DNA from: Perkinsus olseni
Taxonomy: Eukaryota
NCBI GenBank assembly: GCA_013115125.1
Contig: JABANN010000110.1
Location: 1 to 64,000 of the forward strand
DNA: 64,000 bases
Direction of reading: 5' to 3'
Below are positions 133-62,801 of this stretch, one piece after another (position 1 is the stretch's first letter; each line of letters opens with the position of its first letter). The translations under genes were made by a program, and so were the position numbers. The notes below the pieces were generated by a model. It ran no database searches. It was not told the DNA's origin and saw only the letters and a list, made by a program, of their open reading frames with translations.

Positions 133-1380
133 ATGTTCAGCAATGTCCTACCTTACCAGTATCATCTACCCGCAGAAATCTGCGCAGCTGTTGCCGCGAC
201 GTGTGGCCTTGCAGTATCATCGAAGCATCTTTGCCGAAAGTAGTGTGGCGGGGGCGGCTGAGTCTCTATCATCTTTTCCCACGATCGTTTTTGCAGCGTG
301 GTGAGCCTGTGCGAGAAGTGGAAGATCCCGAAGGACGTCGCCGGTGCCTCTTTCCTATCAATCGCAACTGCCGGCCCCGAGATCACCGTCAGCGTTGTAG
401 CATCAATGGCAGGCACTCAGCGCGGCACCGTTTTCGCTGTCTGCGTTATGCTCGGTTCCGGAGTCATTGCCTGCCTGCTCATCCCTGGCCTAATGAGTCT
501 GCGATCAACCCAACCTATCGTCCTCCAAGTCGAGCCGTTGTTTCGAGAGGTTCGTTATTACTTCGTTCTAATAGTAATACTGTCTGGCACTACTATCCTG
601 CCGAGCGTGCTCTGGCTGAGGCTTGCAGCCGCGGCCATGGTCGCCGTCTATGCGATCTATGCCCTAACGTTAACCAAGGAGGCGTCCTGTAGTGATGAGG
701 AAGATCCACTACTGTTGATTCCCGATGGTCGCCACCTGGACGATTCAGCCGGGTCGACCTGCTCAGGCTGCACTGCTGTTTCGCACGTGACTATCAGTGG
801 TTTGCCAGACTTGCCAGCAGACGATAATGGCACCGTGATGGCGGTAGCGTCATTCGTGGCTTGGCCGGTGGACGCGTCGCTGAACTCGATATCCCCGGAG
901 GATCACTCCACTCATCAATGGCTTGGCTGCTTTGTCTCAGTCGTTTGGATGAGCACTAGTGCATTCATCCTAACCCGAGTGGTCGACGGCTGGGTCACCG
1001 GTCACCCTGGCTTCGTGGCGATGTTCGTGGTCTCTCTCACAGCTGAGCTTCCAGACATATCCAATGCTCTCCGCCTGGCAAGTATGTCAGAATCTTCCAT
1101 GGCAATGAGTAATGCTTTGGGCGCGCAAGTAGCCAACATCGGTCTCGGACTCGGCCTTGTGTGGACGATACAACCACCGTTATTCCAGGGCCATCCTCTC
1201 TTTCTGCAGGCAGCTCTGGCGGCTCTTCAATGGTCTTTGCTGGCCTTCTTGGCCACGTTCGTGATTTCATGGCGTGTAAACGGAGCGCTTACTCGCGGTT
1301 CCGGTATGGCGCTGTTGATCATGTACAGTTTAGTATTCGTAGCTCTATCGGTAGTCCACTCGCTGGACGTGTCAACATGA
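133..1380 (+). CDS. Sodium/calcium exchanger (CaCA, NCKX-like) family membrane transporter
   Basis: ATG133, one 57-nt GT-AG intron (240-296) that removes an in-frame TAG, then an open frame to 1380. Alpha-1 repeat 'DVAGASFLSIATAGPEI', alpha-2 repeat 'SLTAELPD...AMSNALGAQVANIGLGLG', many hydrophobic segments. Confidence 0.85.
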
Positions 1381-3005: not shown

Positions 3006-3257
3006 GTTTTGCATGGTGTGAAAGATCTGATACACTGCATCATGTTGTGTCCAGCAGTTCTGTGTTACAAGTTGTGAATCGCAAACCCTGAAGAGCGTGA
3101 CGGAATCTGCCACTCACATTTTATACAATGGTCGACATCGCAAGCGCCCTTCCCGGACTCTGCTGCAACACAATGCATCAGGATTGCGTAGACAACACTT
3201 GAACACTAAAGATATAAACTACCGACTTGAGAGCCGGGATGAAAAATTACAGCCTTC

Positions 3258-6200
3258 TTAGGCCTCTGGACGAAGCTGCTTCGCATCATACGCAGGCCAG
3301 TCCTTGACGGGGTTGAAGTAAGCGAAGAGAGGATAAATAAGGTAAAGGATGAAGAGCACCCAAGCCATAACAGATCCCCAGAATTGGGTAGTGCCCTTGT
3401 ACTTCCTCGGGATGTTATTGTTTGTCATGATAACACGGCTGAGACCACTCTTCATATGAATGAAGAAACAAATGACACCGACGAGATAGAAGCATACCCA
3501 ACCGAAACTCTCGAAGATCTTGAAGGCCATCTTGTAGAGATCCTTGAAGTGGATGATGGGGCAGCTCGTGTCGTCATTGGCGCAAGGGAACCAGTTATCA
3601 CGCATCCAGTACTGAGGGCAATTAGCCTCAGAGATAAGACGGAACTGGAGGAGATGTACAATGAGGAAGACAAGAAGAATGCCACCAGAGATAGCCATCT
3701 CCAAGTCACGGACAGACGAGTTCATAGTCTTGAACTTGAATGTACGATCAGTGGCGACAACAACATGCAACAGTCCTGCGAGCAAGAGATAAATCTCAAC
3801 AGGGAGGAACAGTGTGCTCCACGGACAAGGATGGTTTAGGAGGTAGGCATACCCTTCGAAGCTCCTGTCACTGACCAACAGGTTGATGTTACCAAGAGCA
3901 TGAATGGTGACGAAGACCATGATGAAGATGGCAGAACGCTCCAATCCAGACTTATCAGACAGGACCTTGTAATTCTTGATGCTGAAGATGGTCTTGAGAG
4001 TATCAATGACGAACATCCAGATCATGTAACAGAGAGAGATGACATAGGAGGTAACAGAAGGTCCCAATGGTCCGAACATATCAGCCTTGTTGCGATCTTC
4101 ACCCCACCACTGTTCAGTGAGAGCCTTGGACTCGAACTGATCAGCCAGAAGAGGTTGAGCCAAGTCACCACCAGCGGCAGCAGGGCCCGCAGCCTTCTCG
4201 ACAAGTGGGCCAAGAGTAGCATCAGGAGCGTACTTCTCAATGACACCAGCGGGATGAATCATGTTGAACTCCTTAGAGGCATCCTTACCCGCGAAAGTAA
4301 GAATAGCCATCTTTCCACCAGGATGCTTGGGGAGGAAGTCAGTAACATCGAGCACCTCACCATTGATAACAACCCAGCAATCATCCTCGGTCGTATGCTT
4401 CGCCACTTCCTCCATGGTGATACCATTAGCGGGAGCGGAAGCAGCAGGAGCAGCTGCAGGCGTAGAAGCAGCAGTAGTGGGAGCAGGGGCAGGCGTAGAA
4501 GCAGCAGGCGCAGGCGTAGAAGCAGCAGGCGCAGGGGTGGAAGCAGCAGGCGCAGGGGTGGAAGCAGCAGGCGCAGGGGTGGAAGCAGCAGGCGCAGGGG
4601 TGGAAGCAACAGGCGCAGGCGTGGGCTTCGAAGCGGCCGGAGCAGCCGGAGCAGGTGCAGCCTTACCCTCAACAACGGGTCCGAGAATACAGTCGGAAGC
4701 GTACTTCTCAACAACATCCGGAGGATGAATCATATTGAACTCCTTGGAAGCGTCCTTACCCGCGAAGGTCATGATGGCGAGCTTTCCACCAGGATGCTCA
4801 GGAAGGAAGTTGGTGACGTTCAACACCTGACCGTTGAGGGCAACCCAGCAATCACTCTCGGTGTTGTGCTTGGCAACCTCGTCCATAGTATACCCAGACG
4901 CAGCAGCAGGAGCCGGCGTGGATGCAGGCGCAGGAGCCGAAGCAGCCGGAGCAGGTGCAGCCTTGCCCTCGACAACGGGTCCGAGAATACAGTCGGAAGC
5001 GTACTTCTCAACAACATCCGGGGGATGAATCATGTTGAACTCCTTAGAAGCGTCCTTACCCGCGAAGGTCATGATGGCGAGCTTTCCACCAGGATGCTCA
5101 GGGAGGAAGTTAGTGACGTTCAACACCTGACCGTTGAGGGCAACCCAGCAATCACTCTCGGTGTTGTGCTTGGCAACCTCGTCCANNNNNNNNNNNNNNN
5201 NNNNNNNNNNNNNNNNNNNNNNNNNNNNNNNNNNNNNNNNNNNNNNNNNNNNNNNNNNNNNNNNNNNNNNNNNNNNNNNNNNNNNTAGTGTAACCAGACG
5301 TAGCAGGAGCAGGAGCAGCTGCAGGAGCCGAAGCTGGGGCAGCGGCAGGAGCTGAGCCGTTTCCGACCACACCGATGACAGCATCAGGACAGTACTTCTG
5401 GATGATACCAGCAGGATGGATATCGTGGAACGGCGCAGTAGCGTCCTTACCACCATAGTTAAGAATAGAGATATCTCCACCAGGGTGGTCAGGCAAGAAA
5501 CCTGTTACATCCAAGACCTCACCGTCGATGACAACCCAGCATGACTCGCGAGAGTTGTGCTTCGAGATCTCATCCATAGTGTAAGACTTGCGACCATCAG
5601 TAGAAGGGGCGGCTACACTCGGAGCGGCGGCAGCAGTAGTTGCAGGTGCAGCGACAGCGGTTGCCTTGTCAACCAGTGGACCAAGGATAGCATCAGGAGC
5701 ATATTTCTCGACAACATCCGGAGGATGAATCATGTTGAACTCCTTCGTAGCATCCTTACCAGCGAAGGTCATGATGGCGAGCTTTCCACCAGGATGCTCA
5801 GGGAGGAAGTTGGTGACATCCAAGACCTTACCGTTAACAACAACCCAGCAATCACTCTCGGTGTGGTGCTTGGCGACCTCGTCAATAGTGTACCCAGGCA
5901 CAGCGGGAGCAGCTGCAGGAGCCGAAGCTGGGGCAGCGGCAGGAGCCGAGCCGTTTCCGACCACACCGATGACAGCATCAGGACAGTACTTCTGGATGAT
6001 GCCAGCAGGATGGATATCGTGGAACGGCGCAGTAGCGTCCTTACCACCATAGTTGAGAATAGAGATATCTCCACCAGGATGATCGGGCAAGAAACCTGTT
6101 ACATCCAAGACCTCACCGTCGATAACAACCCAGCACGAATCGCGAGAGTTGTGCTTCGAGATCTCGTCCATGGTGTACGACTGACCAGCAGGAGCAGCAG

Positions 6201-7750
6201 GGGTGGCCGGAGCAGACGCCGCTACGGCAGGTGCAGCGGGAGCGGCGGAAGCAGCGGCAGCAGTAGCCTTGTCAACTACTGGACCAATCATGGCATCAGG
6301 GGCGTACTTCTCAACAACGTCCGAAGGATGAATCATGTTGAACTCCTTGCTCGCGTCCTTACCAGCGAAGGTCATGATAGCGAGCTTTCCACCAGGATGC
6401 TCAGGGAGGAAATGGGTGACATTCAACACTTCACCGTTGATGATCACCCAGCAATCATTCTCAGTATGATGCTTCGCCACTTCCTCCTTAGTGTAACCGT
6501 GTGCAGCAGGGGCAGGAGCAGCAGCAGCAGCGACCTTGGCCGGGGCAGACTTCTTGGGTGCACTAGCAGGTGCCTTAGCAAGAGCAGGCAAGGACATACT
6601 CTTCTTAAGACCGAGAAGATCCTCACAAGCATTATCAGCAGTCAGGCGACCGAAGACAACGCAATCGAGAAGAGAGTTGCCACCCAAACGGTTGTTGCCG
6701 TGGACACCTCCCATGACCTCACCAGCAGCATAAAGGCCGCGGATTGGCTTCTTCGTCTCCTTGCTGATGACGCGACCAGCGGTATCAATCTTGAGACCAC
6801 CCATACAGTAGTGCACAAGGGGAGTGACAATAGCGACGTTGTAGTGGTCGTCCATCTGGAAGTCGTAGTTCTTGAAGAACTTCTTGCCGAACTTATCGAA
6901 GGTCTTGCCGGTAGGATAAGCATCATANNNNNNNNNNNNNNNNNNNNNNNNNNNNNNNNNNNNNNNNNNNNNNNNNNNNNNNNNNNNNNNNNNNNNNNNN
7001 NNNNNNNNNNNNNNNNNNNNNNTCAGCGCCAGCGTTAACACCCATCTTGATGCCATCACCAGTGCAATGCTCACCGTTGGTAGTTGACAACTTGAGCAAG
7101 TCGGGACGATACTTGGCGAGGAGACCATCCTTAGTGAAATCAGCACCGTAACCACCGGTGGCGAGGACTACAGGACCATAAACCTTATGTGATTCACCAT
7201 CGTGAGTGGTGTACGTAACACCAATAACATCACCAGCCTTGTTGGTGATCAGCTCGGTTGCACGAGCCTTGTTGATAATCTTACACCTATCAGGCAGGGC
7301 CTTGGAGATAGCCTCGGCCATCTGCATCTCGGCGTAGGTGATGGTCATACCAGGGAAACGCTCCTTACCACGATGGGTACGCTCAACAGAGTGACCACCC
7401 ATGCGAGCAAGAAGGGAAAGATCGAGATCGAAGTTGTCCATGAGCCAGTTGACAGAGGGGCCGGAATGCTCAACCATAGTCTTGATGAGCTCAGGACTCT
7501 TGGAGCCACCCTTCATGCAATCGAACTCGAACACCTCGTTGGAGTCCTTAACGCCGAGTCTCTTTTGGGTTCTGGTGCACGAACCGTTGATACCAGAAGT
7601 GGCCTTGGAGGAGTTCCCACCGCAGAATGCTGATTTATCAATAAGCAGTACGCTTCCACCATGTTCTAAAATACTATTAGCAGCAGAGAAACCTGCAAGG
7701 CCGCCACCAACCACGATAACTTGATTGGCCGGGGTTTCCGTCGAGGACAT
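3258..7750 (-). CDS. Fusion protein: Osm1/flavocytochrome-c-type fumarate reductase + at least 7 cytochrome b5 domains + cytochrome b558 (SdhC/FrdC-like) membrane domain
   Basis: N-terminal '[10 protein letters not shown]...[13 protein letters not shown]', '[14 protein letters not shown]', 'VHYCMGG', '[31 protein letters not shown]'. Seven b5 domains with HPGG and a second heme His. C-terminal TM domain with 'TIHALGN', 'LLHVVVA', 'IVHLLQF', 'FIHMKSG'. Interrupted only by N gaps; continuity across the gaps is inferred. Confidence 0.85.
4485..4620 (-). repeat. 21-bp coding minisatellite encoding an (ASTPAPA)n linker
   Basis: Tandem units such as agcagcaggcgcaggggtgga between the last two b5 domains. 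Confidence 0.85.
5186..5285. other. Assembly gap (100 N) inside the b5 array
   Basis: Run of N between 'SGYT' and 'DEVAKH', both parts of a b5 domain start; probably a collapsed repeat. Confidence 0.95.
6928..7022. other. Assembly gap (95 N) inside the flavoprotein domain
   Basis: Run of N where the capping domain of this family (QxHPT and ExxRG motifs) should lie; the real gap is probably longer than 95 nt. Confidence 0.9.
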
Positions 7751-9041: not shown

Positions 9042-11382
9042 ATGGACTCCTCCGACTCTTCCCGAGCCCCTACCCGGGCGCCTAGGAGCAGAACAGCGGT
9101 CCCTGAATCTACCCGACCCGCTCCTCCCCGCAAGCCTCCACCAGAATTGCCGGCCCACCATAAAGAGCAACACGCTGCGAACAGGGGGTTGACATATCAG
9201 GAAGGACAGCAGGTGAGGCTTTCGCTGTTTCTTCTTGCATCTCACTCGTCAGGTACAAGCCTTCATCTGTCAAGTGCCGGAGAGCGACTATGACCCCGAT
9301 ATGGGTTGGATGATGGTGGGCAGCCGCGTCGAAGGGCAGGTCTCTCCGCGGCTAGGGATGACCGATGGCTGGGTCGACGCAACTATTGTTGCCGATTTCG
9401 ATAGGAGCAAGTCGGAAGCGGTACGCACCCTATGCACATAGGTGATTATTCTGATAGGTATCGTTCGGACTTGAGAGAGACCTGGCCGGTGGTGGAATAC
9501 TCCCACACTCTCTGGGCGGACGGCCGAGGGGCTATGTTGGACGGAAGCAAGGTCTACAACCTTCGTCAATCCATCAAGATGGAGCATATCAGACTTCCGA
9601 CGCCGGTAGGTTGCTGCTCTATCCGATCTCCGAGATACCGGGTTGGTTCGCGGCTAGAAGATCTCCGTTTACGACAGTGGTGCCCCGTGTGGCTACTCAC
9701 CCTCGGTCAGAGTGAATGGTGAGACTACTGAGAGTTGTTGGGCATGCATAGCTCTTGCGGCCGAACATTGAATTCGTCCTTCAGGAGCGCCGTCCCCCAA
9801 GCCTCAGTCTACTCATCGTTCGTTATGGAGATGGTACCCGAAGAGTTGATACCAGATTCGACATGGCTGTCACCGACGAGCTTATAACTGATCTCATGAG
9901 AGATGGTATCTACGCTACGTAATACAGAGGAGGGTCCACAACTCAAAGAGAGTCGCTAATGAACATGCTACGAGCCAGCCACAGTACAAAGCCCAACAGC
10001 TGGCAATCAGCCCACGAGCGCACCCATTCATGGGTCAGCATACTCCTGTCCCCGCGGAGTCGCCCCAGCGTCGTCGAGAAGAGAATGTGGACTTGCTCTG
10101 TAGATACGGAACCGATTACGAATGCTGGTGTGCGTTTGTTCGCCATACGTCTGACCTACCGAGAATCTCAGAGGCTTGGGCGCGAGCTGCTTTGACGAGG
10201 TCTGGATGCAGCAATCTCGCGGCGATGTACTTCCTTTGGGGAGCGGTACATGGCGACCATAAGCCCGGCTATGTGGAGTACTCTGCTCTGTTCGATCTCA
10301 TGCAGAGACTCGAGTGTGTAGGGATACCGACGCGGTGGCCTAACCCCGTATCTCTCTACCGAGTGCTTAGCAGCAAGTCCTGGCAAGCCTCTTTGGCGAC
10401 TAACACGTCACTAAGGATACCCCCGACTACGACGATACAACGAGCCGATTTCATGCAAGACCCCACGGGGACGTGCCGTAAGGCCCTTCGAGCCCTTCAA
10501 ATACAGGCCAGTGTATTATGGAACAACACGCGCTCACTCTCGGTGTACTCGGAACGAGGAGTGGTTAAAATCGGGTACTCGTGGATGGCAGAAGGGGTGA
10601 AAGCCTTCTACGGCATCACCGACTTGGAGGTGAAGACGAGGGCGCTGTGGGAATCGCTGCCTAACAACGAGTCGACGTTAATGTTGCAGCACAGAATTGA
10701 GGACATAGTTACGGAGCCCAGGGTGTTCGTCTTCAACGGGAAGGTGGAGCACATACGGTATACTGAGTACGTTAATGAGGAGACCGGGTCTGGGCGATTC
10801 AGACAGTTTCGAACCTTCAGCAGTCGGGATGCTACCTACAGGTATTTCAATGGGGATCACAAGACCCGTCTTGTGATCGAGGGCAGGATTAGGGAACTCG
10901 TGGAGCAGTGGATGCTGTGGATTAATACTGCGGTCGGCTGTACCGTACCCTGCTTCGTGAGGCTCGACTTTCTCGTCTCGAAAGCTAAGCCGGGCAGCAC
11001 TACGGCAGTCGGTGGGGTTTCGAAGAGGCAGCAAGCTTCTCGCGGGACTGAAATTACGACTGGTTGTTCCGATGGTGATGACGACGACGAAGAGGATGAT
11101 TGGTATGCTGAGGAGAGCTCAGACGATGAGCTTGGTGCTTCGGACTCTGAGCCGGTATCGCCCTCCGGCTCTTACGTTAGTGCCGACTCTGGTGATGGAG
11201 TTGTGTCTTTGGACGACGACACTGACTTTGGGTACGAGGTGTGGACAGGAGAAGTTGGCGAGATTGGCTCGTCTATGGTGGGATATCGGGATGGTCGTCA
11301 ACGTTTTTTCGAATGTATGGCCAAGTCGTGCCTGCCGGATGTTGGGAAGCCGTCGCGGCCTGCAGGACTTCCCAAGGTCTGA
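9042..11382 (+). CDS. Uncharacterised ATP-grasp-like protein (multi-exon)
   Basis: Short 5' exons from ATG9042, then a long terminal exon with 'GVVKIGYSW', 'LMLQHRI', 'EPRVFVFNGK', 'FVRLDFLV', 'VWTGEVGEIG', ordered as in ATP-grasp ligases, plus an acidic insertion. Confidence 0.6.
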
Positions 11383-11536: not shown

Positions 11537-13420
11537 ATGCTCCACTCACAGTCCGATACGGTGCGTGGAGACAAAAATGGCCCTGGCCGAATAGATGAGC
11601 TTTCTGGAAGCATCGGTGAACACGCTGTGGACAGCGGAGGTGATATGGGTGACTCGGAACATTTGATCCCGTGCGACCGCCGTTTAGCGCCCTCGGAGGT
11701 AGCAAAGCACGATAGCCGGGATGACTGTTGGATTATAGTCAACGGCCGCGTCCTGGACGTCACAGGATTCCTTGGTGACCACCCCGGTGGCGAGAAGTCG
11801 ATCCTTAATTTCGCCGGGAGGGATGCCTCACGGATGTTCAACATGATACACTCCCCCGATGTCATTGAGAAGTTCCTACCGGAAGATAAGATACTAGGCC
11901 CTGTTGCTGAAGAGGAGCCTGCCGGTAGCAAAGTTGATGAAGTGGATGTTCACAGTGAGGAGGACCATGAAAAGCGGGAAGACACGTTCGTAGTGCCGCG
12001 ATGCTGTCGGAATTCGGAGTCGGATACTACGACGAGTGTTCATCACGTCGATGAGTCTGAAGGAGGCTCTGCTGTGGACAGGGAGGACGCCGGCGAGGCC
12101 CACACGGAGCCGGCTGAATCCTGGTTGGTGTTAGGCGGGCAAGTTCACGACATGACGTCAGTGCTACCTGATCTGCTGGACGGAACGGATGAGTCCATTC
12201 TTGCCTTTGGTGGAATGCACTTGGCTGAGGGAGCATGTCCATCGAACTCGGACACTGCGGTGCAGCTAGGTGATGGCAGCACGGTGTCTCCGGTGGACTT
12301 TCTCCCAGTCGAGTCTGAAAGCGAGGAGCCTGTTCCTCAGGCTGGCCGGCGTTATATACCTATGACGGAGGTGGCCAAGCATTGTTCTGAGGACGACTGC
12401 TGGATCGTGATCAACGGCGAAGTCCTTGATGTCACGAGCTTCCTGTCGGAGCATCCAGGGGGCAAGAAGCCTATATTAAGTGTGGCTGGAGGGGACGCTT
12501 CGGAGAAGTATAATTTAGTTCACCCCAAAGAGTTCGTCGAGAAATATGTGCCCAACCTCGTCTTGGGGGATCTTTCCCACGATGGGCAAGAGGTCGCTCG
12601 GAGCTCACCTGAGGAGGCCTTGTCATTGGGGTTCTCGGAGGTCGCTCAGCGGTACCTCGTGTCTTTCTACTATCTTGTACTACTATTCGTCAAAGAGGCT
12701 TTGAGGTCCATTTTCACGGTGGAGAACTTTAAAGTATTGTCGGACCGTTCTGGGCTAACCCGGTCGGCTATCTTTCTCATGGCCTTCGTTACGATACATG
12801 CTTTGGGCAATATACACCTCTTCTTCGGCGCTGAGCACTTCAACGGATACGCGCACTTCCTCAACCACCCCGTCCCTGTGATCGACACTTTAGCACGCCC
12901 CATCGAGATCTACTTGCTGCTCGCTGGTCTTATGCATGTTATCGTTGCCGTAGACCGCACCTTCAAGTTCAAGAAAGAGCGGCTATCGTTGAAGGATATG
13001 GAAATGGGAATCACTGGCGCGATCCTCCTGGTTTTCTTGCTGGTGCACCTATTGCAGTTCCGGCTGGCCCCGGACGCGGTTTTCGCCCCGTTTGACTTTC
13101 GGTCACGGTGGTTACCTCCCTTCCACTGCTCTCCAGACAACGCAAGCTGTGAAATGGTTCGCGTCCGAGACCTCTACAAGGGAGTATTTGATTTGTTCAA
13201 AAGCCCGTTCTGGGTACTGTTCTATGCTATTGGAACCGCCGCCTGCTTTCATCACATGCGGGAGGGTCTTCACCGTATTGTTCGATCCAGCGAAGACGTC
13301 CCTTACAAGTACAATCTTACAGTACAGACCTGGGGTTCTGTCATGGCCTGGGTTGTCGGAATATTGTTCCTCTCTTTCCCTCTGTATGCGTATCTCAACA
13401 ACGAGAATAGACTTGTTTGA
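11537..13420 (+). CDS. Cytochrome b5 (2 intact + 1 degenerate) - cytochrome b558 (SdhC-like) membrane protein; paralog of the C-terminal part of 3258-7750
   Basis: Intronless 627-aa ORF; two HPGG b5 domains; TM domain '[24 protein letters not shown]...MHVIVAVDRTFKFK...VHLLQF...FHHMREG' clearly homologous to the fusion protein. Confidence 0.9.
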   Translation: MLHSQSDTVRGDKNGPGRIDELSGSIGEHAVDSGGDMGDSEHLIPCDRRLAPSEVAKHDSRDDCWIIVNGRVLDVTGFLGDHPGGEKSILNFAGRDASRMFNMIHSPDVIEKFLPEDKILGPVAEEEPAGSKVDEVDVHSEEDHEKREDTFVVPRCCRNSESDTTTSVHHVDESEGGSAVDREDAGEAHTEPAESWLVLGGQVHDMTSVLPDLLDGTDESILAFGGMHLAEGACPSNSDTAVQLGDGSTVSPVDFLPVESESEEPVPQAGRRYIPMTEVAKHCSEDDCWIVINGEVLDVTSFLSEHPGGKKPILSVAGGDASEKYNLVHPKEFVEKYVPNLVLGDLSHDGQEVARSSPEEALSLGFSEVAQRYLVSFYYLVLLFVKEALRSIFTVENFKVLSDRSGLTRSAIFLMAFVTIHALGNIHLFFGAEHFNGYAHFLNHPVPVIDTLARPIEIYLLLAGLMHVIVAVDRTFKFKKERLSLKDMEMGITGAILLVFLLVHLLQFRLAPDAVFAPFDFRSRWLPPFHCSPDNASCEMVRVRDLYKGVFDLFKSPFWVLFYAIGTAACFHHMREGLHRIVRSSEDVPYKYNLTVQTWGSVMAWVVGILFLSFPLYAYLNNENRLV

Positions 13421-13774: not shown

Positions 13775-16700
13775 ATGATTAAGAAGTTGCCTTTTTTCCG
13801 CAGTTGGCTCAGTCCCGCGAGGGTGCTGGGCTTACATCACATGTCCACCGCTGCTCATTTCCCCTCTCTTGCTGCTCCTGAAGCGGCTCGATCATCATTA
13901 GTGCCTCCCAAGGAGCACCCGATGCTCTCCGTCGAGGAATGCAAGGAGAAAATCCGTCAAGTGCTGCTGGATTATCAGGCGACCTTCCGAGCGCGGAAGT
14001 CTACTTTAGAACCTGAGCAACTACCAGTGCCTGATGTACTGGGGCGAGTCCTGGCTGCCGATGTTCACGCCAAAGACCCCTTCCCCCAGTGGCCGACTTC
14101 CATCATGGACGGCTTCTTGGTATGGCCGGTCACGGAGTCGCACTCAAGCGTCAAGAGCAGAAAGTAGTACTTCGGGAGGGTCTAACGAGAAACTCAGAAA
14201 GCTGTATCGAACTGCATGCCCGTACTCGAGGCGCTCCGTGGCTTAGTGACAGCATTGATATGGGAATGGAGCAACTTCAGTACGGTCTCCCATCGACGAG
14301 GAGAGTCACAGTGTAGTGGCATCGAAATTCTCGCCATATATTCAAGAACCCTCCATCATCGGAGTATGGCGTTCGATCAGCGTTCTTGTCTTTTCAGCGG
14401 AATCCTCTATAGAGAGCTGCGAGTGGTCTCCAACGTCACAGCTGGCCACGGTCTAGCCTCTGTGAGTGAGCACGACAAGGCGGCGTATGTAACCACCGGG
14501 ACGCTGGTTGCAACCACGGATCTCGCGGTCGTTAAGATCGAGGACTGCGAAATATCCGGTGACATTGTACGGGTTCCGGTCGTCGGCGTGGTGGCCGGGC
14601 TGAACCTTCGCTCGGTTGGCTCTGATATTGAGAAGGGGGAATGCATAGCGTCAAGCGGTGCGAAACTCACGCCGGCCTTACTCGCCTTGCTCAAAGGCAT
14701 ATCTGCAGTAGTCGATGTAATGCCCGTAGTCAAGGTGGCTGTTGTCTCCAGCGGAGATGAACTCATCAATGAGGAGGCGGCCGACACCAATGGCCCCATG
14801 CTCCATGCCCTCCTAGTTGAGCGTTTTGGCACAGCCGTGGAGATTCATCGTGTGCCCCCGCTGGTGGATGACTATGATCAGACAAGGCAGGCGCTTTTGG
14901 ATCTGGCTGCCTCGACCGACATCGTTATCACTACAGGAGCAGTGAGCAAAGGCTCGAAGGACTTCATCAAGAGAGCTCTTGAGGAGGAAGGGGAGGTGCT
15001 CTTCGGTGAAGTGTGCTTGAAGCCAGGGAAGCCCACCACCTTCGCGACCGTACACGGAACTCCGTTCTTCGCGCTTCCCGGTAACCCTGCGAGTGCCTAC
15101 GTCACCTTCTTCGTGTTTGTCGAGCCGTTCTTGAAGGCCCTGTTGCACAACCACGAGATGCGTGGGCCTGAGGAGGTTCATGTGACTCTTGCGGAGGATA
15201 TGCGGCAGACAGATCCCGTGCGCCCCGAGTTTGTGAGGGCCATCGTGGCTGCCACTCTGGATGGTCGCCTGGTAGCGAGGGGTGTCACTGGTGGCTGCTA
15301 CCAACGCAGTAGTAGGCTGCTCAGCTGTGTGGGTGTGAATGCCTTAGTAAGGCTGCCTGCTGGGGCGGGGACGGTCCCGAAGGGGGCCCGAATGCCGTGT
15401 CTCTTGACCGATCGCGTAGAGCCAATCGGAGAGGGCGATGATATTATTATGGATGACGTTGAAGCCGAGGCTCTCGTTTTCCGAAGACTAGTAGCCTGGC
15501 TGCAAGAGAGAACTGATGTGCAGAATATTGACCTGATGAACCTCGCTGGATTCTGCCGTAACTGCCTATCAAAGTGGTACGCTGAGGGTCGAGGAGTCGA
15601 GCTGGATGCGGCCAAGGAGCGCGTTTATGGTAGTGCTGGGTAGCAGCCGGATAGTTTTCTCGAAGAGCTCTGCGTCATGGTCATCATGTATTGAATCCAA
15701 ATTGTTCTTTATACAATTATGAGGCTCCCTGGGAATTGGAGCCTGCTGCTACAAAGTTAACACGCAATCTAATGCAACGTGTTCCTACTTTTCACTGTAC
15801 CGTTCATCCGCCCCGGCGAACCAACTGGTCACTCGTCTAATCGCCTGCTTACTTCGTGTGAGCAGCGGCTATCTTCAGACTAGTGAAGTATCCGCAGAGC
15901 TCGCTTGTAGAGCTTCCCGGGTACATATTACTAATAATCATCCGGTTGAGCCTTACGTTCAACTTATATAATAATAGTTGAGCGCTTATTATCCGGTCGA
16001 CACGCGCTACAAAGACTTCCTGACAAGGGAAAGCTTCTGTATACTCATCGCAACCGATCGGTCGCCTCTGTAGCCGAAGTCTTGGATGGGAATGCCAACT
16101 CAGTCGCTGTTCTGCAGGTATGCCCTATAACGAGTGGAAGGCTCGCTACCAGACGCCCGCCAGTGAGGAGGCTAAGACTAGGTTCGCTGAAGTTCACACT
16201 GCCAAGGCGAGGACGGCGTGCGGGCATTCAACAGGTATCATCAGTTGGGGTTCGGACTGGTTCTTAAACCTAGCTTCGACGTTATTGTTGTTGTGCTACT
16301 CTCCATGGTCGCCCTCTGCTTTTATGGTGAACGCTCTGTGTTGTGAACTGTTGCTCTCTCTGTAGTCGTCATAACCTTCCAGCCATTCTCGAAGCGGGGC
16401 TGTGGTATCAGTTCTTCTTCTCTCAGGCCCCTCTATCCATCACCACACCTCCCCTCCTAGCGCTTCCACGGCAATCACTCTGGGTGTTGTGACGTGCAGC
16501 GACCGAGCATCTCAGGGAGTGTATAACGATGAGGCTGGACCATTGGTGGCGAGGTTATGCGGAAAACCAGACGCTTCGGTGAGAGGGCATCCTCCACCCA
16601 ATCATTCGTCGGGCTCGAAGTCGAACAACTGCTAGTCTACAATCATCTTGCATCGTGCAGCGTCCTCCAATAGATCTAGACTCGCTACCCACCCCATGCG

Positions 16701-58943: not shown

Positions 58944-60662
58944 TCACAAGGCGCAGGTTCGATACCTCCCCTCTCCTACCGTTCTTCCCTCCTCAGTTCG
59001 TCTCGGGGTCACATTCGGGAGGACCATCGGTCCCCCGCTAGCCGGTGACGGGGAGTAGGCCAGCGTACAGCTGACCTTGCCAGGCACCCCACCGCTCATC
59101 TTAGACCCACCACAGGCCAGCATCTTCTGCAGCAAACTCGGTCGTCTCAACTGCAGCTGTATCACACTCCTGCCCTGCTGCAGCGTCAGGCAGCCCTCCA
59201 CAGGCTTCGGGCCTCCGCTCTTGTAACTCGGGTTCAAATCAAGAACTCCTCCCGTCACCTCAACCCTCATCGGATTCGGAGCTTCCACTAGCGTGCCGAA
59301 CTTTGACTTCTGGTCTTCCAGCACAAAATAGGGTCGCTTGCCGCGACCCCCAGGGGCGAGGCGGATCACAGCGTGGCACCGGCTGACCGAGATGTCGTTG
59401 ATTCTAACATCAGCATCATGGCCTCGTCCAACCCGAATGACACCCCGAGGATTGTTGCCAAGGGACATGATATGGAGACCCTTCCGAGGCGCCTCCGTAC
59501 TCTGCTGCTGCTGCTGGCCGGATCTCCTCGAGTGATGATGGTGCTTGACTTTAGACTCGAGGATGATATACGGGGGAGCCGGCCGAGGGATCTCGTACAG
59601 ATCAATACGCTTAACACGACCGTTCTCAAGCGGCAGCTCGATAACACTGGGATAGGAGGTCTTGCAAAGCTCACAATCCAGACTTCTCCAAAAGTAGCTG
59701 TTGGCCAGGGGATGGCCGTCCCTCTCAGCGTCGGCATTGGTACCGTAGGGGTCGGGTCTCAGACACAGCCGGCCGTCCATCCACTGTCGCAGGCAGTTCA
59801 AGTGGATGAACTTCATGCTGCCTTTGCACGTGCAGGGCGCGACCAAAGGGTTCTCCTTCTCCCCAGCTTCATAACAAATCCGACAGAATCTCTCAGCAGG
59901 AGGTGGGACCTCTTCCGTGTCGTCATCATCAGCGTTCTTAAACTCAGTGCTGGCCGTAAGGGCGCTAGCTCTGTCATCACTGAAGTCACGACCACGATCT
60001 TCCTCAGACTCCCTCGTCCTCTCCTCAGCCTCTTCGGCAGTAGTTACAATTTCCTTTACTCTAATTTTGAATCTTCCTAGCTTCAACGTGTCCCCTTCTT
60101 CCAGTCGATGACCAGCTCCCTTATTATGACGTATCACCTCCCACAGCTTAGACGCCTTGTGGCCACCCTCGGTCGAGTCGCTACTGCTATCATCACCCTT
60201 CGGGGCGGCCCTTTCAACCCAATAACCACCATCCCTCTCGAACAGCCGCAGTAACCTTTTCGTCTTTAGCGAGCACCGTCCTCCATCAGGGCTCCCAGAC
60301 GAGTCCAAGGCGGCGTTGGCACCAGCCACAGTAGCAGCACTGCCGAGCGGCGAGGAGACGTCTTCTTCCTCATCCTCGTCGTCCGAGGGGAGGGCCGGCG
60401 TCATTGCGACCTCGCAGTTGGTACGGGTGACCAGGAACCCCTCGTCGCACATTTTCGCTCGGTAATTCCGTTTGTAGACGCTCTTAGCTTCATAGTCGAA
60501 GAGGCCTCGAGAGTCGTGGCTCCAAGTAAACGTCCGTGCAATCACCTCCACCGGGGTGAGGGCGTCAGAGTGATGGGACGTAGTGGAAGTCGTCTGGAGG
60601 CCGCCGCCTTGCCCCTTGGTCGAGCTACAACTACGACCACGACGAAGACGCGTTGAAGGCAT
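58944..60662 (-). CDS. FHA-like / RINGv (MARCH-type) / FHA protein, putative E3 ubiquitin ligase
   Basis: 'LEEGDTLKLGRFKIRV', 'CRICY...PLVAPCTCKGSMKFIHLNCLRQW...CELCK', 'RVGRGHDADVRINDISVSRCHA...DQKSKFGT'. Probably continues through further exons to about 58400. Confidence 0.9.
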   Translation of the reverse strand: MPSTRLRRGRSCSSTKGQGGGLQTTSTTSHHSDALTPVEVIARTFTWSHDSRGLFDYEAKSVYKRNYRAKMCDEGFLVTRTNCEVAMTPALPSDDEDEEEDVSSPLGSAATVAGANAALDSSGSPDGGRCSLKTKRLLRLFERDGGYWVERAAPKGDDSSSDSTEGGHKASKLWEVIRHNKGAGHRLEEGDTLKLGRFKIRVKEIVTTAEEAEERTRESEEDRGRDFSDDRASALTASTEFKNADDDDTEEVPPPAERFCRICYEAGEKENPLVAPCTCKGSMKFIHLNCLRQWMDGRLCLRPDPYGTNADAERDGHPLANSYFWRSLDCELCKTSYPSVIELPLENGRVKRIDLYEIPRPAPPYIILESKVKHHHHSRRSGQQQQQSTEAPRKGLHIMSLGNNPRGVIRVGRGHDADVRINDISVSRCHAVIRLAPGGRGKRPYFVLEDQKSKFGTLVEAPNPMRVEVTGGVLDLNPSYKSGGPKPVEGCLTLQQGRSVIQLQLRRPSLLQKMLACGGSKMSGGVPGKVSCTLAYSPSPASGGPMVLPNVTPRRTEEGRTVGEGRYRTCAL

Positions 60663-62801
60663 TAAAGACTGGCGGGACTCACTACAATGACAGAATGCTG
60701 ACCGCACGTGGGAAGGTAGACGAGAAATCGAAAATAGCGAAACGTGCATCACTTCGCTCCGCTAGAAAAGTTCAAAACAATAATAGCTTCGCTCCGCCTT
60801 TTCTTGTCGGCGCATTTGCATTGTGATCACCCCTCCGCCTGCTGTTTTTATGCGTAAGATTCTACCATTCGCCCTGATCAACCTAAGATACGCCTACAGT
60901 GGATCGCTGAAGGCTCAGTTCACCGTGGAGGGCGGGGGCCAAGTCTTCGTCGTTGATGCAGATGATTCAGCGGACGGGTAAGCCTTACTCATACCAACTT
61001 TTTCGTATCTTCCGATCGGCGACTGGTCCCGCCTCTTTTCTGACCGCGTTATCCTCTTCTACGTGACGCTAACTGGCGGCACGGGATTGTTCCAGTCTGT
61101 TGACTGGCGAATCGTAGGGCGTTGCACTTACTACGATTATCAACAACAAAAAATATAGAAAACTGAAATGTTATTAAGGGGTTGGTAAAATTTAAATACA
61201 ACTTATTCGCATAATAACAAGTTTTGCGAAAATTTATGTCGATAATTTCATGAGTTGTCTGATCTCAGTGACGCCCGACTGGGTCACTAATTTGCTTATC
61301 GCACTTCTCACGGGCTCAGGGCCAAGCTGTAGCCACTCGACCTGTTACAGTGTCCAGAAAACTTCGCGAAGTTTTGACGTACTTATGAACATTTCCTGTC
61401 GGCCGGAGAAAGGCATCCGCCGCTGATATTAGTATTAGTAGTACTTATAATCATTATTTCGTTAATTTTATTATGTCTTAGTCAGTACTCTATATAAACT
61501 GGTCAGCGTTTTATATTTTATCGTTATTATCGTACTACTGTAAAAATAATCTACACAGCCAATCTCGATATCGAGTGGGACGCACCGTACGAAAGTCCTC
61601 AGGGAGAAATCCCAACGACTTTCAGATAATCATTGCGGCACATGGATCATCACAATTTTTATGTACCCATTCAAAGGGGGCCACCGAAAACCGCACGTCT
61701 CACAATACGCATGGTACTCACGCTAAGAAGACACTGCCATGTTTTGGTATCCACACCTATGAGAAGTGCATTCCTGATCGCTCTGGGGTAAAATTTATAA
61801 ATTCATGTAGCAATTAATAGAATATCAATTTACTATGAAGTTTTTTGATAAATCCCCGCTGTGAGCTTTATGTGGTTAATACTTATGATCCTCATAGCGG
61901 GGTGCTGTAGATCGAGTTGGGATGGGGAGGGCCGTGAACCTTGAGAAGGACTAGCATCAGGTACAGCTGGTTCTCAGCAGCCGTGGATGGAGGTCACCTA
62001 GCGCACTGTCAACTCGTGAGGATCGATCAGTGAGTGCGATACGAATTACGCGAGGGGATAAGCGGTGGTCTGTAGGGAAGTGCTATGCCTCATGGACCCT
62101 GGTTCGATCCCTGCTCCCTCCTTTTCTCCTGTCCCCGACGGCACATCGCATGAGGAAGGCTCAGTTGGCATTGTTGTAGCGGATGGAGTCGTCACAGCGC
62201 TGGCCTTCAATGTAGTACACGGCAACTCTCTTTCATTATCGATCAATCAAAAAATCTCGCGAGAATTTGTATTCCGACCTGGGAAGGGTGGGAACGGAGA
62301 ATGCACTCTCGTCGTGTTGACCTGCTCTGATCTAGGGAATGGGTTCTCAAGCGGCAGGGGTGTGATAGGAGCTACTACCACACAGAGTGCAGTTCAAAAC
62401 GGCGCTCTGTTTTTACAACAGAGAGTCCGCGTTGTAACGTCAGCGTACAGCCCAACGTCACCGCCCTACCACCCGAGTGCGCCGCCAGCTGACTAGTAGC
62501 CACGGTACTGATGGTGGCACCGTGATGGTGGTCGTGGTAGGGCACATTCACGCCAGTTGTGGCGGCGGAGCTTGCCGGGAGGGAGGGAAGTATCTTAGTT
62601 TCGCCCCACCTTCTTTCCCAGCACTACTTTCTGTGCTCAATGAACCGGCCTTAACTGCTCCCTCTTGAAACAAGATATATCGATGCTAGTCTGACTGAGC
62701 CGGTCTTGGGCGTTGGGCTTAAAACTCTCGCACGCCCGCTCGGACGAAAAATAAGGACTTTTCCAATTTCTTTCTTACGCGAGTGGGAGTCGGTATTTCT
62801 C

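Follow-up and report, generated by a model that had tools for sequence, protein, structure and literature searches.

Positions 1 to 64,000 of contig JABANN010000110.1 (assembly GCA_013115125.1) of Perkinsus olseni form the stretch analyzed here, which we call the window. Near its start, the minus strand carries a gene that joins three modules in one chain: a flavoprotein head of the fumarate reductase superfamily, a row of seven cytochrome b5 domains, and a six-helix membrane domain related to the dihaem anchors of type-B succinate dehydrogenases and fumarate reductases. The coding sequence runs as a single reading frame from an ATG at 7748-7750 to a stop at 3258-3260, apparently without introns, and is interrupted solely by two runs of N. 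These divide it into stop-free in-frame pieces of 242 residues (7025-7750), 547 residues (5287-6927), and 641 residues (3261-5183). The frame differs on either side of each run because the N runs are scaffold placeholders. A preliminary description of this DNA had assigned the flavoprotein, b5, and membrane parts to one gene; Pfam and NCBIfam searches found all three in this one minus-strand frame, and the coordinates given there were correct to within about 50 bases.

3258..7750, minus strand: whole coding sequence, with its start codon at 7748-7750, its stop codon at 3258-3260, and two N gaps
6928..7022, no strand: assembly gap 1, 95 N; relatives have 136 residues between the motifs on either side, among them the counterparts of four of six catalytic residues
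5186..5285, no strand: assembly gap 2, 100 N, where b5 domain 5 begins; directly adjacent is a 300-bp repeat (96% identity, 4636-5185)

The 300-bp tandem repeat spans b5 domains 5 and 6 and stops exactly at gap 2, and this near-perfect repeat accounts for the assembly break. It also makes the number of b5 units a minimum, since copies could have been collapsed. By comparison with P0013, a P. olseni protein from another assembly that is 98% identical, gap 2 would, if empty, cost just one residue.

The head belongs to the soluble Osm1/flavocytochrome c class and was found on both sides of gap 1.

7025..7720, minus strand: N-terminal part of FAD_binding_2 (Pfam PF00890, E 3.4e-33; TIGR01813, E 2e-53), with the Rossmann motif from residue 14
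7583-7621, minus strand: motif '[13 protein letters not shown]', inside the N-terminal part of FAD_binding_2
6670..6870, minus strand: C-terminal end of FAD_binding_2, with HYCMGG (6796-6813) and NRLGG (6679-6693), which correspond to Osm1 H435 and R477

Both FAD_binding_2 matches were above the Pfam cut-off, the second (profile positions 341-414) with an expectation value (E) of 2.3e-18. For the first piece, TIGR01813 (flavo_cyto_c) was the best NCBIfam model, with TIGR01812 (sdhA_frdA) reaching just E 1e-11; the TIGR01813 score of 181.7 bits against a cut-off of 285.45 comes from the 242-residue fragment alone, owing to gap 1. The full-length relative P0015 aligned with yeast Osm1 (PDB 5glg) at E 1.4e-93 over residues 9-477 and with Shewanella Fcc3 at E ~1e-65, and SdhA chains in the PDB aligned with its head over the last 60-90 residues only. 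These matches bear out the earlier assignment of the flavoprotein to the Osm1 class and not to SdhA. Enzymes of the Osm1/Fcc3 class bind flavin adenine dinucleotide (FAD) noncovalently and are essentially fumarate reductases. We take the motif at 7583-7621 to mark this noncovalent class, and FAD would be bound in the same way here. In all 30 full-length relatives, the chain has no extension before the Rossmann motif, in keeping with the earlier remark that the protein has no N-terminal targeting peptide.

Osm1 has six conserved catalytic residues, H281, E301, R304, R326, H435, and R477 (PMC6242907). The five motifs that bear them are kept in 26-27 of 27 Osm1-like fused relatives. At this locus, the equivalents of H435 and R477 are the only ones visible; the other four fall in gap 1.

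Behind the head follows the chain of b5 domains.

6274..6501, minus strand: b5 domain 1, with HPGG and second His; net charge -5
5956..6183, minus strand: b5 domain 2, variant type '[14 protein letters not shown]'; net charge -7
5671..5898, minus strand: b5 domain 3; net charge -5
5362..5589, minus strand: b5 domain 4, variant type; net charge -6
4971..5183, minus strand: b5 domain 5, first residues lost in gap 2
4671..4898, minus strand: b5 domain 6, from Pfam
4482..4624, minus strand: Ala/Pro/Ser/Thr linker ('ASTPAPA'), a 21-bp repeat of 6.8 copies with 95% matches
4200..4427, minus strand: b5 domain 7, adjoining the membrane domain and included in the structural model; net charge -6

Pfam Cyt-b5 (PF00173) marked seven stretches above cut-off, four in the second piece (E 3.6e-97) and three in the third (E 1.5e-72), and P0013 carries seven HPGG motifs in sequence that is continuous through the region of gap 2; the preliminary description had counted at least seven. 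Each of the seven has both haem-ligand histidines (HPGG and a second His ~23 residues on), so that haem binding is predicted throughout, and all are acidic, with net charges of -5 to -7. In a structural search, the fold matched b5 structures at Z scores of 10-13; flavocytochrome b2 is among the proteins that the b5 domains match. Across the family, the number of tandem b5 domains ranges from one to nine, most relatives having one or two. The seven domains, in which two types alternate, have arisen by tandem expansion locally, and the 300-bp repeat and the 21-bp linker repeat are marks of recent expansion. That most relatives manage with one or two b5 domains, seven being a local expansion, argues for tethered shuttles and not for a rigid wire.

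The membrane domain occupies the C-terminal 290 residues (P0001), which show six hydropathy peaks. Five of the predicted transmembrane (TM) helices make up a core of the SdhC type.

3888..3953, minus strand: TM1, with H77 (3900-3902), corresponding to the distal-haem ligand His-C32
3729..3800, minus strand: TM2, with H122 (3765-3767), corresponding to the proximal-haem ligand His-C81
3639..3713, minus strand: TM3, with H159 (3654-3656), corresponding to the distal-haem ligand His-C135
3423..3506, minus strand: TM4, with H225 (3456-3458), corresponding to the proximal-haem ligand His-C188
3315..3407, minus strand: TM5, last helix of the SdhC-like core in the structural model

NCBIfam TIGR02046 (sdhC_b558_fam) matched the domain at E 4.2e-13 over profile positions 14-207 of 212. 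A single-sequence phmmer search of the membrane domain against PDB sequences gave no matches at E up to 10; a profile built from 15 eukaryote-type sequences had a sole PDB match, Chloroflexus aurantiacus SdhC (9lay_C), at E 8.5e-15. We modeled b5 domain 7 together with the membrane domain (389 residues, alignment of 36 sequences) by AlphaFold2 (AF2) and obtained a mean predicted local distance difference test (pLDDT) score of 84.5 and a predicted TM-score (pTM) of 0.71. When the model was searched against 48,161 chains, the three top membrane matches were the three solved type-B dihaem anchors: 9lay_C (Z 19.5, 208 of 239 residues aligned, root-mean-square deviation [rmsd] 3.0, on model residues 148-374), Desulfovibrio gigas FrdC 5xmj_C (Z 14.5, 181 aligned, rmsd 3.1), and Wolinella succinogenes FrdC 1e7p_C (Z 13.6, 196 aligned, rmsd 3.8). 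The next membrane match, a mycobacterial SdhD, had a Z score of 8.0. Foldseek gave a target-normalized TM-score of 0.69 against 9lay_C. The part that can be superposed on the bacterial anchors begins at model residue 148-154. In the ESM Atlas, the nearest clusters were bacterial Sdh_cyt (score 0.90), a lead only.

The four histidines H77, H122, H159, and H225, whose codons we verified, lie on the second to fifth of the six helices, one on each, as the preliminary description had noted for four successive helices. Not one of the four varies in the 36 aligned sequences, among which are six bacterial SdhC, or in the 15 of the eukaryote-type profile. The hidden Markov model (HMM) alignment places them on His-C32, His-C81, His-C135, and His-C188 of Chloroflexus SdhC, where C32 and C135 are the axial ligands of haem bD and C81 and C188 those of haem bP (PMC12663545). 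The domain would thus hold two b haems. Further polar residues are conserved on the distal side (N81, N92, E112, Y114, and Y199); Chloroflexus SdhC binds its second menaquinone at the distal side, and the canonical proximal quinone site is formed partly by SdhB residues (PMC12663545). From the HMM match, the profile match to 9lay_C, and the structural search, we conclude that true homology links the membrane domain to type-B dihaem SdhC/FrdC, although its sequence has diverged too far for the NCBIfam cut-off; the type-B b558 anchor proposed earlier was right both as homology and as fold.

Three separate genes scaffolded together over the two gaps would give the same picture, and the gaps themselves, the change of frame at each, and the near-perfect repeat at gap 2 speak for such an artefact. 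However, the FAD-to-b5 junction (within 5287-6927) and the b5-to-membrane junction (within 3261-5183) each lie in uninterrupted sequence. P0012 and P0013 of P. olseni are 98% identical to the membrane domain, and P0013 is continuous from the end of the flavoprotein, across seven b5 domains, and on into the membrane domain, spanning gap 2. P0015, gapless and 1003 residues long, has the head, two b5 domains, and a membrane domain with 51% identity to this one. Of ten long matches scanned from a representative search, all had Cyt-b5 and seven had FAD_binding_2 as well; among 118 further flavoprotein matches listed, 25 carry a C-terminal membrane domain behind one or two b5 domains, so that at least 25 are fused. 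The paralogue P0010 is a further gapless protein with this order. Gapless proteins with the same order occur in several genera and in transcript assemblies, and the fused ones include proteins from the genomes of Amoebophrya and Amphidinium. We therefore rejected a misassembly, which we consider to have next to no chance of being the explanation, and the single gene proposed in the preliminary description is supported by the gapless relatives and the transcripts.

The family was found in Perkinsea (Perkinsus marinus, P. chesapeaki, and P. olseni), in Amoebophrya sp. A120, in Amphidinium carterae, in a Prorocentrum/Polarella protein, in Yihiella yeosuensis, and in MMETSP transcript assemblies. 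The fusion is thus conserved across Perkinsea, Syndiniales, and core dinoflagellates. The same architecture in free-living Amphidinium, Prorocentrum/Polarella, and Yihiella weakens the link drawn earlier to parasites of hypoxic hosts. No animal-host counterpart turned up in the homologue searches, in which no systematic search for one was made. In public databases, the members bear automatic names: "succinate dehydrogenase, putative," "hypothetical protein," or "cytochrome b5 heme-binding domain-containing protein."

At this very locus, transcription is weakly supported. Contigs of X9, a run recorded as RNA, cover 3264-4479 with at least 95% identity, one of them (4044-4287) joining b5 domain 7 to the beginning of TM0, the first helix of the membrane domain. 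A 1103-base contig of X7, which is RNA by guess only, covers 3186-4287 in one piece. Libraries of these types may contain DNA, and bins left uncovered in runs X9 and X20 carry no weight as evidence; a single mRNA for the fusion is attested more strongly by the transcript assemblies of the relatives. An X9 contig leaves the window sequence at 3264, just short of the stop, and continues with 117 unlike letters, and the X7 contig follows the window to 3186; strain variation or use of an alternative 3' end could account for the divergence.

The membrane domain begins with a helix that the bacterial anchors lack.

4089..4109, minus strand: conserved motif 'WWGEDRN', just upstream of TM0
3984..4055, minus strand: TM0, model residues 125-148, not within the region that overlays solved SdhC/FrdC

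All 42 eukaryote-type sequences have TM0, whereas the six bacterial SdhC, whose starts fall just before TM1, lack it. With an Eisenberg mean of 0.55, it surpasses the other five helices in hydrophobicity, and it forms a hydropathy peak of its own (Kyte-Doolittle 1.65). AF2 models it as a helix of 24 residues whose pLDDT reaches 96, and it is flanked by the conserved WWG..RN on one side and by K-T-I-F and lysines on the other. If TM1 is oriented as helix 1 is in bacterial anchors and TM0 spans the membrane, the b5 chain and the flavoprotein would therefore lie at the distal-haem face, opposite the face at which SdhB docks. In the bacterial anchors, the N terminus is on the cytoplasmic side. SdhB and haem bP are on that side (PMC12663545). 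The charges bear on the same question. Across the family, the loops of the proximal side are net positive and the segments of the distal side net negative. A spanning TM0 with a cytosolic head would violate the positive-inside rule; were the rule obeyed, a head of more than 1000 residues would lie outside the cytosol or matrix without a recognizable signal. A complex prediction of the membrane domain with three haems and b5 domain 7 scored 0.03 and 0.06 against a mark of 0.34 and was uninformative on docking and on the face used. Of the earlier proposal that the b5 chain replaces SdhB, one part stands: the gene has no iron-sulfur domain and has b5 domains in that place. The geometry it implies is doubtful, with TM0 lying between the b5 chain and the core.

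Taken together, the modules would make a single-chain, membrane-anchored flavocytochrome b fumarate reductase that is fed from the membrane and works without an iron-sulfur subunit, a reading to which we give about even chances. The six-helix membrane domain, a type-B SdhC/FrdC core with two b haems and an extra N-terminal helix, would draw electrons from the quinol pool, most likely from ubiquinol when the pool is over-reduced, as in hypoxia. The two b haems would hand these electrons to the nearest of the seven flexibly tethered, acidic b5 domains, along which they would hop, or by which they would be carried, to the FAD of the Osm1-type head, where fumarate would be reduced to succinate. 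Pfam scans of the gene's three pieces found no iron-sulfur domain, the corresponding stretch being taken up by the seven b5 domains, although a separate SdhB partner may exist. P. marinus is reported to have a genuine complex II whose membrane part is truncated and haem-free, with tiny SDHC and SDHD (bioRxiv 10.1101/2024.05.25.595893). That complex II being separate and haem-free, the fusion protein is therefore not its anchor.

Several points weigh against this fumarate reductase reading. By midpoint potentials, electron transfer from ubiquinol to fumarate is uphill under standard conditions, and we infer the donor and the direction of electron flow from sequence. SdhB, which contributes to the canonical proximal quinone site, is absent, so that a quinone site would be putative. 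The TIGR02046 score of the membrane domain, 49.4 bits, lies below the curated cut-off of 96, and the Pfam Sdh_cyt match (E 0.089) is not significant and under its cut-off. TM0 looks in the model like a true spanning helix, in which case a simple quinol oxidase would appear to have one haem more than it needs. The charge pattern, too, would conflict with a cytosolic N terminus, the proximal loops being positive and the b5 domains acidic. Four of the six catalytic residues of this gene are hidden in gap 1, and nothing suggests decay; among the best 120 of 2710 matches, no near-identical protein covers the gap, the closest being an 81% identical paralogue, P0010. Finally, headless members of the family (P0014, P0016, P0019, and a neighboring gene) show that the b5-membrane module has a role independent of fumarate.

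The position of TM0 and the retention of both haems would be accounted for by a transmembrane conduit that uses no quinone, in which the two b haems carry electrons from a donor in another compartment to the b5 domains and on to fumarate. With six helices, both termini would be on one side, and the donor would act from the lumen, from outside, or from the matrix if the head is in the intermembrane space; it might be a flavoprotein of the Ero1-like oxidase type or another redox pool, with fumarate as the anaerobic sink of that compartment. The universal presence of TM0 in the eukaryote-type sequences, its absence from bacterial SdhC, and its hydrophobicity and modeled length speak for such a conduit, and the family keeps all four ligands of both haems where a one-sided quinol oxidase would need one haem. 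Cytochrome b561, Dcytb, STEAP4, NOX2, and DUOX1 align with the model from within TM0 onward, at weak Z scores of 5.8-7.4. Moreover, yeast Osm1 receives electrons from Ero1 in anaerobic disulfide formation (PMC6242907). On the other hand, the conduit has no known donor, the Z scores for six-helix carriers do not rise above helical-bundle noise, the crossing of TM0 is not directly seen, and type-B anchors are reported as quinone enzymes in every solved case (PMC12663545); on balance, we regard the conduit as unlikely, though well short of remote, and as the main rival. In another reading, the wiring is reversed, with the b5 chain and head at the distal-haem face and fumarate reduction coupled, via obligatory transfer across the membrane, to a quinol or protein donor on the opposite side, which we consider possible but doubtful. 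If true, the enzyme could be a ubiquinol:fumarate reductase driven by the membrane potential, with its head in the intermembrane space, or it could let a noncytosolic redox pool, such as that of oxidative protein folding, dump electrons on cytosolic fumarate; the b5 domains with the b558 anchor alone would then be a general membrane-to-b5 electron port.

Electrons could also flow the other way, from FAD through the b5 domains and b haems to quinone, making the protein a single-chain succinate dehydrogenase. Transfer from b5 to ubiquinone is downhill, and the automatic database names of relatives read "succinate dehydrogenase, putative" (P. marinus) and "succinate dehydrogenaase" (Amphidinium). 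The head, however, is of the soluble Osm1/Fcc3 class (TIGR01813 far ahead of TIGR01812, and the long Osm1 alignment of P0015), whose members are essentially fumarate reductases with noncovalent FAD, and Perkinsus is reported to have a separate, complete complex II in a supercomplex (bioRxiv 10.1101/2024.05.25.595893), which leaves the succinate dehydrogenase direction improbable. More improbable still is a membrane domain that has become a degenerate SdhC relic and merely tethers a fumarate reductase whose b5 domains are fed by a soluble or membrane b5 reductase. NADH-b5 reductases are the usual reductants of b5 domains, and the TIGR02046 score under the curated cut-off would suit a relic. A mere anchor, however, would keep neither the conserved polar residues of the distal side nor four haem-ligand histidines that are invariant at 22-35% sequence identity. 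The membrane-fed fumarate reductase is thus the reading that we carry forward.

Upstream of the fumarate reductase gene lies a second member of the family.

11537..13420, plus strand: headless paralogue of 627 residues, with two b5 domains and a six-helix b558-like domain (Pfam Cyt-b5, E 1.2e-51)

This paralogue is transcribed divergently, 3.8 kb from the ATG of the fumarate reductase gene. It shares 99% identity with P0016 of P. olseni and 53% with the fumarate reductase gene's membrane domain. In the interval separating these two b558-family genes, a frame of 450 residues (10030-11382, plus strand) has no Pfam match and an acidic, serine-rich C-terminal part. Other long frames in the window encode a Na_Ca_ex exchanger-like protein (298-1380, plus strand), a MoeA/gephyrin-like molybdopterin protein with DUF1244 (14216-15643, plus strand), and a protein with RINGv and FHA (58944-60752, minus strand).

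Other members vary at the head. The P. olseni paralogue P0010 (1507 residues, partial) has two tandem heads, with HYCMGG at 326 and 818, and behind them three b5 domains and the membrane domain; the tandem heads could be a real duplication or an assembly artefact. P0052, P0067, P0073, and P0076, from a metagenome, Yihiella, and MMETSP transcripts, all sources of dinoflagellate type, share the architecture with a head that lacks all five fumarate reductase motifs. The heads of these four have only distant flavocytochrome-c or aspartate-oxidase relatives, and their sequences suggest a different substrate. The P0054 cluster (259 residues, 16 members, on contigs of up to 114 kb in environmental assemblies) consists of TM0 and the SdhC-like core, with no b5 domain, and could be the form of the module before fusion. 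Together, the headless, two-headed, and other-headed members suggest that the b5 domains and the b558 anchor form a reusable electron port.

We found no paper describing a flavoprotein-b5-SdhC fusion in full-text literature searches, which did not extend to subscription-only texts and closed supplements, and the main text of a paper on the P. marinus mitochondrial complexome (PMC13623125) contains none of six relevant terms. Reviews of complex II set membrane enzymes composed of flavoprotein, iron-sulfur subunit, and anchor against soluble homologues; in the available text of a 2023 review, the soluble homologues are of the Fcc3 and Osm1 types only, with no quinone half-reaction, and cytochrome b5 is never mentioned (PMC10238741). 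The modules described here are known and the sequences are already public under automatic names; the arrangement is undescribed, and its link to the anchor is possibly reversed. The family joins a head of the soluble class straight to a type-B anchor through b5 domains. If the protein is active, no iron-sulfur clusters would be needed for electrons to pass between a dihaem cytochrome in the membrane and a flavin, and a type-B (b558) anchor, otherwise bacterial only in these searches, would be working in eukaryotes. Such an enzyme would provide Perkinsus and dinoflagellates with a previously unrecognized disposal of electrons on fumarate, with a bearing on how oyster and clam parasites, bloom-forming dinoflagellates, and relatives of coral symbionts survive hypoxia.

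We compared the Perkinsus protein with known systems that share one or more of its parts. Cytochrome b561/Dcytb, NOX/DUOX, and STEAP offer an analogy of layout only, with six helices and two stacked b haems on four histidines, and in NOX and STEAP with a cytosolic redox module on the same chain. Their Z scores (4o6y_A 7.4, 5zlg_A 7.2, 6hcy_C 6.0, 7u8g_A and 7d3e_A 5.8) are in the range of helical-bundle noise; there is no detectable homology, whereas the Perkinsus core is clearly derived from SdhC. Flavocytochrome b2, sulfite oxidase, and nitrate reductase likewise use a b5 domain on a flexible hinge as an internal relay, but theirs is a single b5 domain in a soluble enzyme, whereas the Perkinsus family has one to nine b5 domains and a dihaem membrane end.

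The type-B quinol:fumarate reductases (QFR) and succinate:menaquinone oxidoreductases (Wolinella succinogenes FrdABC, Desulfovibrio gigas QFR, Chloroflexus aurantiacus SdhABC, and Bacillus subtilis SdhCAB) are the closest in structure; they have the homologous dihaem anchor with its four axial histidines and carry out fumarate/succinate chemistry at a flavin of the same superfamily. The Perkinsus gene, in contrast, has no iron-sulfur subunit or domain, the connection being made by b5 domains instead; its head is of the Osm1/Fcc3 class and not of the SdhA/FrdA class; everything is on one polypeptide; TM0 is added; the gene is eukaryotic and nuclear; and its HMM score lies under the family cut-off. 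Yeast Osm1/Frd1 is the closest solved relative of the head (5glg), with the same catalytic residues as the Perkinsus protein's relatives, and serves, as the Perkinsus protein would, as a eukaryotic anaerobic electron sink, but it has no haem or membrane domain and takes its electrons from free flavins or Ero1 (PMC6242907).

By analogy, the chain from CymA to Fcc3 in Shewanella appears to be the nearest functional counterpart. CymA is the membrane quinol dehydrogenase that supplies Fcc3 with electrons. Fcc3 has a head of the same class, and a covalently attached multi-haem module feeds its FAD. The two systems differ in that Fcc3 carries a tetrahaem c domain before its head, whereas the Perkinsus protein carries b5-type domains after it, and in that the Perkinsus membrane module is of the SdhC type and is fused into the same chain.

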